DNA from: an uncultured Spirochaetota bacterium
GTDB lineage: Bacteria > Spirochaetota > Brevinematia > Brevinematales > JAOACQ01
Reading direction: 5' to 3'
NCBI GenBank assembly: GCA_963783575.1
Contig: CAWAOD010000009.1
Span: forward strand, 320,001 to 384,000
Length of the DNA stretch: 64,000 bases
In this document: positions 53,861 to 64,000 of the stretch, piece after piece
Position numbering within the stretch: the first letter of the stretch is position 1
How the letters are laid out: each line of letters begins with the position of its first letter
Translations under genes and position numbers: made by a program
The notes under the pieces: model-generated
The model's input: the letters and a program-made list of their open reading frames with translations, nothing else
Databases searched by the model: none
Told to the model about the DNA's origin: nothing

Positions 53861-54393
53861 CCGCTCGAGAGAGCGGATTGCTATCGGAAGCTCGCTGCGG
53901 CGAATCACACTCATGCCGATGCGGTAATGCCAAGGTAAGCAAACAAGAAAGCATCCCTGGCATTATGCAGTTTTGATTAGAACATGTCTGGGTAAGACAA
54001 AACTGCCCAGCTTTTGCAAAGAGACTGCAGAATTGTCTTTCTAAAGTTGGTTCTTATCAATTCTGCAAATTATCCGGTCTGCTATTCATTACACTAGCCC
54101 GGATAATACGGCCGCATCCTTGATTTTGCTGAAAAATGAATTAAAATTTGAAAACTATAACCAACCTTTTCTAATTGTATTTATAACTCATTGTTATAAA
54201 ATAGGATATGACACCAATAAAATACTGTTTATTAAACATTTTAAGATTTATGATGATTTTCAGTGAACACATCCGTGCGGCCTATCTCTATGAGTGTGTT
54301 TTGCCCCCGCTAGCCGGGATTTAAATAAACGATTCTTTATGATTATCAACAAGCTGAAATTATCTGTTCTTTCTGGTTCTTGACCGGCTGTTC
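53861..54393 (+). ncRNA. Candidate structured RNA/DNA element A (multibranch, interrupted by a MITE)
   Basis: ccgctc-GAGA-gagcgg; closing stem cacactcat (53906-14) / atgagtgtg (54290-98) encloses several hairpins; homologous to 61781-62041. Confidence 0.5.
54122..54270. mobile_element. 149-bp MITE related to the IS at 12047-13896
   Basis: Left end gattttgctgaaaaat is identical to that IS's IR; degenerate right end attttcagtgaacac; flanks atcctt/atccgt inside ggccgc...gcggcc. Confidence 0.7.
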
Positions 54394-54750
54394 AGGAAAG
54401 GATTGATGTTTAAATAAATATAAAACGATTTTTTATTGATTTAACTTATCAAATAAGTTCGCTTAATTACACCATGGAGCATAAGCGCAATTTCTGATTG
54501 AACTTATATTATACTTATAAGGAATCTTGGTACAAAATCATTGTTATTCGTAATTAACATTGTTTAAACAAGTTTGAGGATTTCAACCACGGAAGGTTGA
54601 GACCGAGGAATCAGAACAAGGACGTACTAATGACGAAGCGGTAAGTAAAAGACAGCTTTTACAAATAATCCTGAATAACAACATCTCAGTACTCAAAGAT
54701 TACTTCACATGAAAAATGGTGTTAATGCGAAGGGGCGATTTTTCTTTTCG

Positions 54751-56940: not shown

Positions 56941-58080
56941 TTATTTTACCCGTCCTGCAACCAGGTATTCCGTTGTTTCACCGGCTTTATAAACCCTTTT
57001 CGAATGATCGATGTCTGCCCGGAACCTTTGATATGGGAGCTTTACAAATTTATAACCTGAACAATAAGCCTCGAAAAGACTCTTAATAAAATCTTCCGAA
57101 ACAAGCCCCTCGTTATTATATGAAAGAATGACATATCTAGAATTTATTTTTGAAAATAATTCCAAATATGCCGATTCCGATTTGCTCCTGAGGCTGTAAT
57201 CCGAAATCAATTCTTTACTGTCTCTTAAACCCGTTATTCCCCTCGGAAAAAATCTATTAAGATCCCATTTCACGATTGTTTCAAGTATATGATAATTTCC
57301 CGAGTACTGGCGGTGATTGTAAGGCGGATCAATGTAGGTTAATAATATATTATCGTTTTTCAATTGTTCAAGAAGTTTTAAGGAATCAACGCAAAATACC
57401 TTGTGATTTCCAGGATTGGATTTACTTTTAACAGGTTTTATTGCAATCATTTCCATCGGTTTTTCAGCGGTTTTTTTAATTTTTTTCAGGAAGGCACCGT
57501 AAACCGAAGCTGTGTTGGCCGCCCTGTCCGCTGATTCCAGAAGACAGGCTATAAGCCAGGTTTTTTCATTGCCGGCGAGAAGGCCTTTCCGGTTCCATTC
57601 TTCGATTTTATCCCTGACAGCCTGAATTTTAAGCCCATTTTCGCCTGAAAAATATTTTCTTCCCTGACTTCCGCCGTCGCAGTAATAATCATAAAATTCA
57701 CCGCTTTTACCGCTTAAATTTCCAAGATATGTTAATACCTTGATAAAAGGCATATCTTCGATTAAATCATTACTGCAGCCGTAAGAATGGGTTTTTACCG
57801 GTAAAGGTTTTGTATCATATACTGATTTTTCCTCGTCGCTGTTAAGAAGTTTTTTAAATTCCGGGAAGCCATCGAATATAATATAAGATGCCGTAAGGCA
57901 GTATGAGTAATACTGCCAGTCATTTGCGTAAACAGCATATCCCAGGGACTTAAAAAGCTGCGATACAACGCCGGTTCCGGAGAACAGATCAAGGACTGTT
58001 CCGCCTTCCGGAATATTGTATTCTCTAATAATATTTTCTATGTGTTTTAACAAGCTGAATTTAGATCCGATATAATTCAT
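56941..58080 (-). CDS. N6-adenine DNA methyltransferase (M.NlaIII/M.HpyI-like), orphan
   Basis: MNYIGSK, DLFSGTGVVS, NTASVYGAFLK, YIDPPYNHRQY, LSYNNEG. Confidence 0.88.
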   Translation of the reverse strand: MNYIGSKFSLLKHIENIIREYNIPEGGTVLDLFSGTGVVSQLFKSLGYAVYANDWQYYSYCLTASYIIFDGFPEFKKLLNSDEEKSVYDTKPLPVKTHSYGCSNDLIEDMPFIKVLTYLGNLSGKSGEFYDYYCDGGSQGRKYFSGENGLKIQAVRDKIEEWNRKGLLAGNEKTWLIACLLESADRAANTASVYGAFLKKIKKTAEKPMEMIAIKPVKSKSNPGNHKVFCVDSLKLLEQLKNDNILLTYIDPPYNHRQYSGNYHILETIVKWDLNRFFPRGITGLRDSKELISDYSLRSKSESAYLELFSKINSRYVILSYNNEGLVSEDFIKSLFEAYCSGYKFVKLPYQRFRADIDHSKRVYKAGETTEYLVAGRVK

Positions 58081-60765: not shown

Positions 60766-61749
60766 ATGTTTTCACACCTATATATTGAAAAAAAGGCTTT
60801 AGAATATCCAATGACCCGGAAAATTTTAAAAAGTTTTCCAAATTCCGTCAGAATAACAATTGATCATTACAAGGATTTTTTCTGCCGTCCGGATCAGGAT
60901 TATACCGCCCAGAAATCTTCTCAAAAGCTTATACTGGCCGTTAAGGAGGATAGGTTTCTTTACAGGGTGCCGGAAATCTGCATTGATAATGACCGGGAAA
61001 ATTTACAGAACAGCGAAATATATTACTCTTCAGCGGTAATAAACTGCATATATAACTGTGAATACTGTTTTTTACAGGGTATGTACCCATCCGCGAATAT
61101 TGTTGTTTTTGTCAATATTGATGATTTTTTCGGGGCTGCGGAAAATAAAATCAATGAATCGAAAGAAAATCATATTAAATTGAAAGTTTCTTATGACTCA
61201 GATATCATAGCATTGGAAAACATCGTACCATATGCTTACGAATGGATAAGATTCGCAAAAAGAAACCGGAGAGCAACGGTCGAAATCCGTACAAAAAGCG
61301 GAAATTTTAATTCGATATCGATGCTTGACCCCCCTGAAAATATTGATCTTGCCTGGACATTATCCCCGCAATCCGTTGCCGAAGAATTCGAAAATGGCGC
61401 TCCCTCGCTTGAATCAAGGATTTCATCCGTCCGGCAGGCCGTTGATAAAGGCTGGAAAGTCAGGCTTTGTTTTGACCCTGTGATAATGGTTAAAAACTGG
61501 AAAGATATTTATTCGGAATTTATTGATTATATTTTCACTCAATTGCCTTACGGTGAAATTCATGATATAAGCACAGGCGCATTCAGAATGCCGTTTGAAT
61601 ATTTCAAAAAGATAAAAAAAATCAGGCCTGATTCCGGTTTATATTACACTAAGCTGGAAAACCGTAGCGGAAATATCCGATATCCCGAAAAGTCAGAATT
61701 TGAGATGCTGGATCATATCGGCAATTGCATAAATAAATATAAAAGATGA
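60766..61749 (+). CDS. Spore photoproduct lyase-like radical SAM protein
   Basis: NCIYNCEYCFLQGMY, EIRTKS, AWTLSP, RLCFDP. Confidence 0.85.
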   Translation: MFSHLYIEKKALEYPMTRKILKSFPNSVRITIDHYKDFFCRPDQDYTAQKSSQKLILAVKEDRFLYRVPEICIDNDRENLQNSEIYYSSAVINCIYNCEYCFLQGMYPSANIVVFVNIDDFFGAAENKINESKENHIKLKVSYDSDIIALENIVPYAYEWIRFAKRNRRATVEIRTKSGNFNSISMLDPPENIDLAWTLSPQSVAEEFENGAPSLESRISSVRQAVDKGWKVRLCFDPVIMVKNWKDIYSEFIDYIFTQLPYGEIHDISTGAFRMPFEYFKKIKKIRPDSGLYYTKLENRSGNIRYPEKSEFEMLDHIGNCINKYKR

Positions 61750-61780
61750 TAAGGCTTACCGAACTGATGTTCGGCGGTTG

Positions 61781-62041
61781 ACTAGGGGGCCGCTCGAGAG
61801 GGCGGGTCATTAACGGGAAGAGCGCTGCGAAAGAAAGTAACTTTTGCAGCCCTTCGTAACTCACGTCCTGTTCGAACAGATCTACGGGCACGCGCGAGTC
61901 CTATCGCGCTCGCAAAAGTGACTTTCTTTCTCCGCTGTGCTTTCCCGTGAATCTAGTAAAGAAAGAACAGCCGGGAAATTAGTTTATGATTAATAATAAT
62001 CTGAAATTGACAGTTCTTTTTGGTTATTAGCCGGCTGTTCT
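61781..62041 (+). ncRNA. Candidate structured RNA/DNA element B
   Basis: ccgctc-GAGA-gggcgg; long stem 61813-61847 / 61912-61948 with two internal hairpins; 11-bp IR agaacagccgg/ccggctgttct (61964-62041). Confidence 0.5.
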
Positions 62042-62102
62042 GAATATTTACAAAAGTCCCCTGTTTGTGGAAGAGAGGTTATATCTGTTTACAAAATGAT
62101 TC

Positions 62103-62132
62103 TTGACAATCAATAAATTAAAATGCTATAAT
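62103..62132 (+). promoter_or_regulatory. Consensus sigma70 promoter facing the cassette (Pc-like)
   Basis: TTGACA-18 nt-TATAAT with extended -10 TG (tgctataat). Confidence 0.75.
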
Positions 62133-62234
62133 AAAAATATTTATGTCCGTTGACCGGCAGAATATTTTTTTATAATATTACTAAGTTTTTTAATAAGTTC
62201 GTATTTTACAAGTATTTTGAAGTAATATATGAAG

Positions 62235-62292
62235 TGCGCATATCACTCCGAAATTAGAGTAATATACGCAATGCGTATATATCGAGTTGTAC
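62235..62292 (+). other. attI-like recombination site
   Basis: Three TGCGYATAT boxes (62235 +, 62262 -, 62272 +), then 5 nt and GTTGTAC (62286). Spacing matches the attC right end gtgtacgc-ctgcc-GTT. Confidence 0.6.
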
Positions 62293-62331
62293 GAAAGAAA
62301 TGCCCAGTAAGTTTATTTTTTGGAGAGTGTT

Positions 62332-63735
62332 ATGAATAAAATAATTATTTTATTATTAGTAATATTGTTTAATATCTTTTTATCTAACAATTTATATTGT
62401 AATTGGTCTCCAGTTGATGGTTCGTCATTAAAACAACCAAGAACAATGCAGCTAATTAATAATAAGTCTATATTTATTGAAAATGAAACAATTTCAATAA
62501 AAATTGAAAAAGAAAGTGCTTTTGTTAGTGTATTATATAAATTAAAAAATACAATAAATAAACAGGATGTTAATGTCAGTTTCCCAGTTGAATATTTATT
62601 AGAACCATATTTTGATGAGTTTAATAATAGTAATAAGGTTGACTATTTCAACGCTTATGAAAAAAGTGCTGATAACTATCAAAAAATAGTTTGCAATGAA
62701 TTATCAATAACAAATAATTTTAATAAAGATAGAGATGAATATAATATAACTCGATGGTATAATGCAAAGCTCAATTTTGTAAAAAATGAACTTAAAGAAA
62801 TTAAAGTTGAATACAAGATGAGTCTCGGTTTTGGAGATGGTATATCAACAATAGATTATTTTGTTAGATATTCACCAAGGACTTTTAAATATTTATTAAC
62901 ACCTGCAAAAAATTGGGGAAATGGGTTAGCCAAACATATAGAAATTAATATGGATTTAAATGATTTAAAAACCAATAATTTAATACTAAATAATATAAAA
63001 TTTCCTGGAAGTAAAAATAAATTTGGAATTTTCCAGGGATTAATAAACATTATTTCCCCAAATAAAACATTAATTAACAATAAATATTATTATAGTTTTA
63101 AATCAGATAATTTCAATTTTAACAATGCAGAAAATATTGAATTGGAATTTGATGTGGGTTCAATTTATAATTCTCAAATAGCATTAAGTAATAGAATTTC
63201 TAATAATCAAATTATTTCAATGAAGTCTTCTTCTACTCTTATAGATAAAAAGTATAGTTATTCAGTTTCTAATTTAATTGATAATAATTTTTCTACTGCT
63301 TGGGTTGAAGGTTCTTCTGGCCAAGGAATCGGCGATTGGGTTGAGTTCACATTTGATAATCCGAAAATAGGTTATATTGGAATTATCAATGGCCTTTTTA
63401 TAAATGAAAAGCTATATTATGCCAACAGTAGAATAAAAAAATTAAATTATTATGTAGAATATAATACAAATTATAATGATCCAAATAACATAACTTTTCA
63501 ACAGCAATATTTAACATATCATACTAATAATTATGAATCTTATGACATTAACTTTGAAGATAAACCTTATTTTAATATTTCTAAGTCAAATTTTTATAGA
63601 GTATTAGAAAGAGTATATGAAAACCCAGATTCTCCATTTCCAATTAAAAAATTTAGATTAACAATAAAAGATGTTTATCCTGGAAAAAGTTATAAAGATA
63701 CCTGTATTTCAGAAATATATTTTTTAAGCAATTAA
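62332..63735 (+). CDS. Cassette-borne exported protein: DUF4424-like N-terminus plus NADase-type glycan-binding (discoidin-like) domain
   Basis: Signal peptide; TAWVEGSSGQGIGDWVEF, NSRIKKL, VYPGKSYKDTCISEI; visibly more AT-rich than neighbours; RBS ggag before ATG 62332. Confidence 0.75.
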   Translation: MNKIIILLLVILFNIFLSNNLYCNWSPVDGSSLKQPRTMQLINNKSIFIENETISIKIEKESAFVSVLYKLKNTINKQDVNVSFPVEYLLEPYFDEFNNSNKVDYFNAYEKSADNYQKIVCNELSITNNFNKDRDEYNITRWYNAKLNFVKNELKEIKVEYKMSLGFGDGISTIDYFVRYSPRTFKYLLTPAKNWGNGLAKHIEINMDLNDLKTNNLILNNIKFPGSKNKFGIFQGLINIISPNKTLINNKYYYSFKSDNFNFNNAENIELEFDVGSIYNSQIALSNRISNNQIISMKSSSTLIDKKYSYSVSNLIDNNFSTAWVEGSSGQGIGDWVEFTFDNPKIGYIGIINGLFINEKLYYANSRIKKLNYYVEYNTNYNDPNNITFQQQYLTYHTNNYESYDINFEDKPYFNISKSNFYRVLERVYENPDSPFPIKKFRLTIKDVYPGKSYKDTCISEIYFLSN

Positions 63736-63759
63736 GTAAAACAACTGGGCGTTTCCTTC

Positions 63760-63983
63760 GTACAACATGGCGTACACGTTCCGCTCCGTCCTCACTAGCG
63801 TTCCGGGCGGTGCTCAGGCTTCGCCACATTTCGCTTTGGCACGGATTTTTGCCTGAAATTTATTAAAGAGGGAATATGATGTTTAATAATGACTGTATTT
63901 ATAGAAAAACTTTACGGCAAAGTGGCAAAAACACGTGCCAACCCTGACGGGCCGCGAAACGTCGTGTACGCCTGCCGTTATAT
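63760..63983 (+). other. attC-like site (~224 bp)
   Basis: R'' gtacaac (63760-66), ggcgtacac (63769-77) / gtgtacgcc (63964-72), R' gttatat (63977-83); nested stems ttggcacg/cgtgccaa and tttttgcc/ggcaaaaa. Confidence 0.75.
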
Positions 63984-64000
63984 GCAATGCCTTAAATTTT

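Follow-up and report, generated by a model that had tools for sequence, protein, structure and literature searches.

A promoter-attI platform without an adjacent integrase heads a cassette array in a spirochaete genome and is probably a satellite dock of an insertion-less recombinase

Introduction

In the standard picture an integron has one attI and one promoter beside one integrase, and only the first cassettes are expressed. The stretch of DNA analyzed here, 64,000 nucleotides from the genome of an uncultured Spirochaetota bacterium (the window; G000:C9:320001-384000, from an assembly of 4.9 Mb in 18 contigs that is 89.9% complete), ends in a platform that departs from this picture. An earlier, sequence-only reading had proposed that it is the head of a cassette array that has kept its promoter and attI and is served by an integrase in trans or downstream. 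The locus raises the question of which recombinase loaded the array, and of how the platform came to stand without one.

Results

A complete cassette platform at the window edge

The platform opens with promoter unit P (62103-62157, + strand), composed of a consensus extended sigma-70 promoter and a conserved CCGTTGACCGG box (62147-62157). TTGACA at 62103, a spacer of 18 nt, TG, and TATAAT extending to 62132 match the consensus at 12 of 12 bases, bearing out the earlier claim of a perfect promoter. Such a match is not rare by itself (116 genome-wide); the 65-bp unit P is a repeat with 14 copies, and it would serve as the cassette promoter.

Downstream of P, attI (62188-62288, + strand) comprises three mutually similar boxes with 37-bp spacing, starting at 62198, 62235 and 62272, and the crossover G62286|T62287. 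The boxes rest on a motif scan and were not detected by a general repeat search. The sequence-only reading had placed the end of an attI-like site at 62286, which is the G of the crossover. The site is identical at 47 of 49 positions to an integrase-linked attI on contig C5 and at 96 of 100 to an orphan attI at C5:115.0 kb, and it can be aligned with the integrase-linked attI of 4 related genomes. The core site has direct-repeat boxes upstream of it, and the boxes are conserved across 14 aligned sites. IntI1 has been shown to insert cassettes at attG sites near resident promoters (10.1101/2022.09.11.507474), and cassettes could conceivably have been inserted here at attG sites behind a strong host promoter, the attI-like sequence being due to chance or having evolved later. 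This is hardly credible, as the near-identity to the enzyme-linked attI already contradicts it, the site carries repeated boxes, and the reversed genome used as a control gave no attI match at E<=1.

No intI is adjacent to attI at the window head, nor was any remnant of it detectable there. As had been stated for the window, no tyrosine recombinase (PF00589) was matched in it, and none was matched in its array; the nearest one on the contig is a Xer-like gene ~205 kb beyond the window. An SPL-family radical-SAM gene (60766-61749, + strand; PF20903, E 1.6e-22) belongs to the host flank, outside the platform. It had been suggested to examine whether the locus is fixed with the same flanks in relatives, and no platform follows the SPL-like gene in any of the relatives having that gene (4/4). 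Farther upstream, the window carries a D12-class adenine methyltransferase gene (56941-58080, PF02086). Rfam gave no match for 61500-64000 at E<=1, and pattern scans of metagenome and viral contigs gave no matches.

Cassette 1 (62287-63977, + strand, crossover to crossover) exists as a single copy in the genome. Its gene (62332-63735, + strand) encodes 467 aa with a hydrophobic N-terminus, which makes export likely, and a C-terminal discoidin-like glycan-binding domain; the protein matches PF25302 (E 3e-27) and NF047619 (E 9e-31). The GC content of the ORF is 0.23-0.24 compared to ~0.37 for the contig, in line with its earlier description as very AT-rich. Homologues of the protein number 26, at 24-36% identity; those at four loci of relatives showed no clear cassette ends, and PADLOC gave no match for the gene. 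The cassette ends are complementary at 10 of 10 positions, the first 10 bases (GTTGTACGAA) being the exact reverse complement of TTCGTACAAC (63757-63766), before the attC arm. Since the GTTGTACGAA core is the commonest cassette core of the genome (24 occurrences), the match shows cassette form and not a unique pairing.

The palindrome noted earlier after the stop codon is attC1 (63760-63983, + strand, 224 bp), which starts 25 bp past the stop and ends at the GTT at 63977. Its first stem has 10 bp, the spacer of the R' arm is 2 nt longer than that of the R'' arm, and its bottom strand folds with z = -4.9 (0 of 200 shuffles as good). The loop of attC1 holds a mini-ORF (63876-63947, + strand) of 23 codons with a ribosome-binding site, and its translation could open the attC hairpin and so allow read-through. 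ORFs of 20-23 codons ending 39-43 bp before the site end are found in 4 of the 15 attC sites examined.

Cassette 2 starts at 63978 (63978-64000 in the window, + strand), and the array continues to at least four cassettes, the search for further attC sites downstream having been rewarded beyond the window. Cassette 2 codes for 164 aa, cassette 3 for 445 aa with HNH and zinc-binding repeats, and cassette 4 carries a polyketide-cyclase-family gene and an EVE-domain gene; an attC precedes each of the three. Complementary ends were seen at 9 of 10 positions in cassette 3 and, by eye, at 7 of 10 in cassette 2 and 9 of 10 in cassette 4. Like a CALIN, the array has attC sites (attC1-3) between same-strand ORFs (four cassettes) and no integron integrase nearby. 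An IS1182-family element is located at the attC3 AAC, and cassette 4 is closed by an IS1182 end with IS21 inside. Genome-wide, the left-end motif of the IS adjoins AAC in 22 of 29 matches; ends of the IS1182 family lie immediately next to the AAC in the R'' box of attC, with AAC repeated on the far side (e.g. L001:4725-6480). The decayed tail of the array contains an arr-family gene (rifampin ADP-ribosyltransferase, PF12120, E 2e-49) and a gene for a beta-lactamase-fold serine hydrolase (L001:13106-15701, corresponding to C9 ~394.6-397.2 kb). The pair is flanked by two 207-bp direct repeats (94% identical), and no attC was seen around it.

A matching recombinase without the IntI-specific insertion

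The best TIGR02249 match in the genome, and its only cognate recombinase, is encoded by a gene at C5:457.1-458.2 kb, transcribed towards an attI ~55 bp past its stop; recombinase and attI together head a long cassette array. In tested integrons only the cognate integrase recognizes an attI (PMC2095811), and with the 47/49 identity this makes the C5 enzyme the likely partner of the window attI. The proposal of an integrase acting in trans is in so far supported by a matching recombinase elsewhere in the genome, but its service was probably past rather than present, since the gene contains two frame breaks (near C5:457.47 and 458.09 kb). These are probably real, given that ~37 kb of near-identical IS copies (self-hits excluded) showed 0 gap openings, albeit repeats may be polished to a common consensus. 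A look through sequencing runs turned up one DNA run (share 0.07), whose contigs do not extend over the breaks, and no RNA run.

An IntI bearing the I2 insertion had been expected, and in this respect the expectation failed. The best family of the C5 recombinase is NF040815, and its TIGR02249 score is 161.6 bits (as a fragment) against a cut-off of 265. It lacks ~41 residues, the IntI-specific insertion near patch III, which are present in VchIntIA and the canonical spirochaete IntIs, the motif gap being 62 aa compared to 102-103 in the latter. In a quick tree of 50 proteins the C5-type enzyme falls outside the canonical IntI clade (support 99). An extra N-terminal domain resembles HARP only weakly (Pfam 22.1 and 17.7 bits, below the cut-off of 25; XPB and SMARCAL1 HARP in Foldseek at E 0.08-0.1 only). 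Elsewhere, at C5:3-32 kb and C15:6.5-28 kb, tyrosine recombinase genes of ~450 and 350-370 aa occur in five tandem pairs, some of them identical, and constitute a multi-copy element.

The attC sites, located by arm profiles, depart from the canonical form as well. Canonical sites have extrahelical bases on the R''-L'' arm, contacted by the integrase (PMC5027507, PMC2095811), and the sites studied here do not show them. Of 18 attC sites in this genome, 16 combine an unbroken first stem of 7-11 bp with an R' arm longer by 2, and in relatives the offset of the R' arm is +2 to +4. By contrast, control arrays beside canonical IntIs, judged by eye, have spacers that are equal or differ by +1, with the extra base in 13/14 and 4/5 rows. 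At 153-253 bp the sites are also long, PMC5027507 giving a range of 57-141 bp. The missing insertion of the integrase coincides with the missing extra base of attC, and the two losses may be linked. With this arm geometry, the sites may fail the covariance model of IntegronFinder.

One could suppose that catalysis is due to a canonical IntI which the incomplete assembly lacks, with the insertion-less gene a bystander; canonical IntI does occur in 15 of 151 genomes of the phylum. This is very improbable in view of the insertion-less gene ending so close to attI, its position immediately ahead of a homologous attI in the genomes of four relatives, attC sites unlike those of canonical spirochaete arrays, and the absence of canonical IntI from all of the 41 nearest genomes.

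The wider enzyme family was subjected to a cassette-end test at 85 loci, 23 of which were untestable. Perfect ends were found at 6 of the 62 testable loci (0 in 100 shuffles) and 56 were negative, so that only part of the family is cassette-linked. The six loci with perfect first-cassette ends lie beyond the order, in Bacteroidota and Ignavibacteriota. A TTTAACAA-type repeat is, by eye, common to L021, L023, L026, L027 and L030 upstream of the integrase start, and in some of these an attI-like box is present upstream of the integrase gene too, possibly for self-regulation.

Docks across the genome

The attI model matched 14 distinct loci in the genome (9 seeds and 5 new ones), and 13 of these have no integrase. 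Unit P was detected 13 times with a profile made from six heads, and a rebuilt profile added a 14th copy (best E in the reversed-genome control 0.86). Five heads lie on the window's own 743-kb contig, hence the multi-dock pattern is not a binning artefact. When the ends of first cassettes were tested for complementarity at the attC arm, 7 of 12 sites were positive (three at 10/10, three at 9/10 and one at 8/10) and 5 failed. Sites resembling attI, with no unit P, were seen at C14:80.5 kb, C13:214.0 kb and C8:54.0 kb.

The heads are mosaics. In the window, an upstream part of 255 bp is shared with C13 (91%), and a downstream part of 189 bp with C5:115 kb (92%). A 2638-bp block with cassettes 2-3 of the window array recurs at 99.85% identity in the array headed by the C5 enzyme (C5:472317-474954). 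Identity begins 2 bp before the G|TT crossover, the attC arms upstream being different, and it ends inside an IS1182 copy, after which different attC sites follow in the two arrays. The left end points to site-specific recombination and the right end to participation of IS homology. It is the only such cassette block among 3 AT-rich duplications.

Relatives with intact enzymes

The attI model matched 10 of the 34 genomes of the order. One of them (G005) carries an orphan attI that has 64 identical bases in common with the enzyme-linked site of that genome, and another (G004) has three promoter-attI units and one enzyme. The second unit of the latter (L147:7900-8030, C10 74.4 kb) shares the strand of the enzyme-linked unit and follows 5.7 kb downstream. 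In G011 the same 585-bp first cassette (99.3%) stands behind an enzyme-linked and an orphan attI of different sequence, and identity stops at the attC crossover. Among the relatives' orphan attI sites that were tested, 5 of 7 had 9/10 first-cassette ends followed by an attC arm. The stretches fetched around the orphan sites contained no integrase except G004's own. A dock of this kind is present in G008 as well, whose matches included no cognate enzyme.

Three elements of G011 (L154, L155, L156), 99.7% identical to one another, each carry attI and an insertion-less integrase that is intact. They show a way for a genome to acquire additional integrons, the element being a mobile integron-like unit. 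The elements adjoin repressor-like and broken methylase-like genes, and the two copies that reach that far have different first cassettes.

Remnants of intI and the origin of the docks

Two heads, at C13:218.9 kb and C4:27.3 kb, retain the last ~30 codons of a decayed intI between promoter and attI (E 3e-7 and 3e-6; best reversed control 0.35), while the other 15 of the 17 heads searched, the window head among them, were negative. Across the deleted part the two remnant heads share 88% identity over 433 bp, and they occupy different loci and have different first cassettes. Read most simply, this means that a single deletion occurred and that the dock was copied once it lacked the enzyme, and at least these two docks would have arisen in this way, by intI loss and later copying. 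For the window head, descent from an intI-bearing integron is suggested by the shared promoter and attI. No unit P precedes the intI gene that survives on C5, and the ancestral place of P is one that we infer. The idea that unit P is itself a decayed intI end was rejected, as P and the remnant stand side by side in two heads. The integrase is unlikely to have driven the spread of attI, to judge by analogy with attI1, which was found not to integrate into genomes (10.1101/2022.09.11.507474).

An alternative is that the docks are inert relics, each array having been filled only beside its own intI and the sharing being due to ordinary recombination or gene conversion between repeats. The intI remnants, the mosaic heads and the end of the 2638-bp block in IS homology are all in line with this; the three G011 elements would provide a source of extra whole integrons, and intI loss is a known route to CALINs (PMC4889954). 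However, only 2 bp of identity precede the crossover at the left end of the shared block, the remnant heads share one deletion yet hold different first cassettes, and the G011 cassette lies behind two different attI sequences with identity ending at the attC crossover. We consider this alternative unlikely, albeit not negligible, and prefer loading in trans of docks that had already lost intI.

The sequence-only reading had also noted a structured non-coding element and an SPL-like gene where intI normally lies. Both are real, but the element (61790-62043; fold z = -7.3) is not specific to the locus, being a genome-specific dispersed repeat with 25 matches and none in 34 relatives. Repeat A (61790-61954, no strand assigned) is a long palindromic dispersed repeat, which we take to be REP/MITE-like; 10 near-full copies were aligned, with two-sided changes at 7 of 67 pairs (7 copies). 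Repeat B (61960-62043, no strand assigned) is a 10-bp stem closing an AT-rich loop and is usually joined to A; it has 21 copies. Repeat B was considered as an attC and rejected, since its stem starts at AAC without offset and no cassette start complements it. A second copy of B in the window, at 54312-54396, has no P unit behind it.

Repeat B is found <=200 bp upstream of 8 of 13 P units (0.012 expected by chance), so the A-B repeat travelled with many of the dock copies. It could even be a non-autonomous mobile element carrying promoter and attI, in which case the docks would have spread by transposition and not by intI deletion. The distance of B from P, 60-63 bp in five cases, would suit such an element, as would A, in whose long terminal inverted arms some changes are two-sided. 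On the other hand, 5 of the 13 P units lack B, and 13 of the 21 B copies are not upstream of those 13 units (one of these copies lies ~155 bp before the 14th P unit). No target duplication was evident in the aligned flanks. The two Y1 transposase matches are not adjacent to repeat A or B, leaving no transposase tied to A-B. Furthermore, relatives have orphan attI sites and no A-B repeat, so transposition can explain copying in this genome only. As an origin of the docks it is decidedly improbable.

Discussion

The reading that we favor, with a probability of roughly 70%, is that the window head is an intI-deleted satellite dock that was loaded in trans by a single insertion-less recombinase and is now probably frozen. 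Its ancestor would have been a complete same-orientation integron that lost its intI gene. Platforms deleted for intI would have been copied to new loci, often together with the A-B repeat. Cassettes would have been cut out at attC hairpins by the recombinase and placed at any attI copy, and with each attI read from its own promoter, several first positions could have been expressed at once. Once the recombinase broke, the arrays would have been frozen and eroded by insertions of IS1182, IS21 and IS630. It counts against this reading that the enzyme lacks the insertion that has been called essential for integron function (PMC8138268).

With many docks per enzyme, numerous cassettes of a cell could be in first position and expressed at the same time, a departure from the standard picture. 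The intI remnants provide a visible route from a complete integron to a CALIN. The matched loss of the insertion and of the extrahelical bases of attC allows the evolution of hairpin recombination to be tested directly with the intact enzymes of the relatives. Surveys that demand the IntI-specific domain would miss the insertion-less class.

The platform appears to work like an integron cassette array and falls, as far as tested, within the CALIN definition. With the CALINs of PMC4889954 it has in common at least two attC, the lack of an integrase nearby, and an integrase elsewhere in the genome. It differs from them in keeping a full attI and its own promoter, and in that about a dozen heads coexist in one genome. 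Loss of intI is one of four origins proposed for CALINs in the same study (Cury 2016), in which a search for attI was possible only for classes 1-3 and split-off cassettes were treated as cut off from Pc.

With the Treponema-type integron (PMC3607928) the system shares the same-orientation layout at C5, G|TT crossovers, promoterless AT-rich cassettes and some long attC sites. As in that type, intI is transcribed towards attI at C5 and in the relatives, though not at the window head. One attI per integron is stated for it, in contrast to the docks described here. Canonical spirochaete IntIs also have the insertion and form a separate clade, and the R'' arm of canonical spirochaete attC sites has an extra base that is lacking here. 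The window platform is not a canonical complete integron, having no adjacent intI, a matching enzyme with no insertion, and no extra base on the R'' arm.

Insertion-less members are known among the integron-like simple tyrosine recombinases, in a study that calls the insertion essential (Smyshlyaev et al. 2021, PMC8138268); compared to the subgroup as presented there, the members found here adjoin attI and cassette arrays. Cassettes at attG sites and SALINs (10.1101/2022.09.11.507474) lie away from intI and are expressed from a promoter close by, much as proposed here, but attG is unrelated to attI, whereas the window site is a near-identical attI. In their main texts, 10.1101/2022.02.06.479319, PMC8618304 and 10.1101/2025.06.18.660453 deal with CALINs and use in trans, not with docks that keep attI and promoter, and a search made mainly in open-access main texts found no literature on dispersed orphan attI platforms.

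It is nearly an even question, with the balance slightly against, whether the system is a sister kind of integron, in which one XerA-like insertion-less recombinase with an extra N-terminal domain acts on non-canonical attC hairpins and feeds many promoter-attI docks. Such a kind would be invisible to IntI-profile searches, would occur in both spirochaetes and Bacteroidota, and would reflect the state that preceded canonical IntI, before the insertion was gained.
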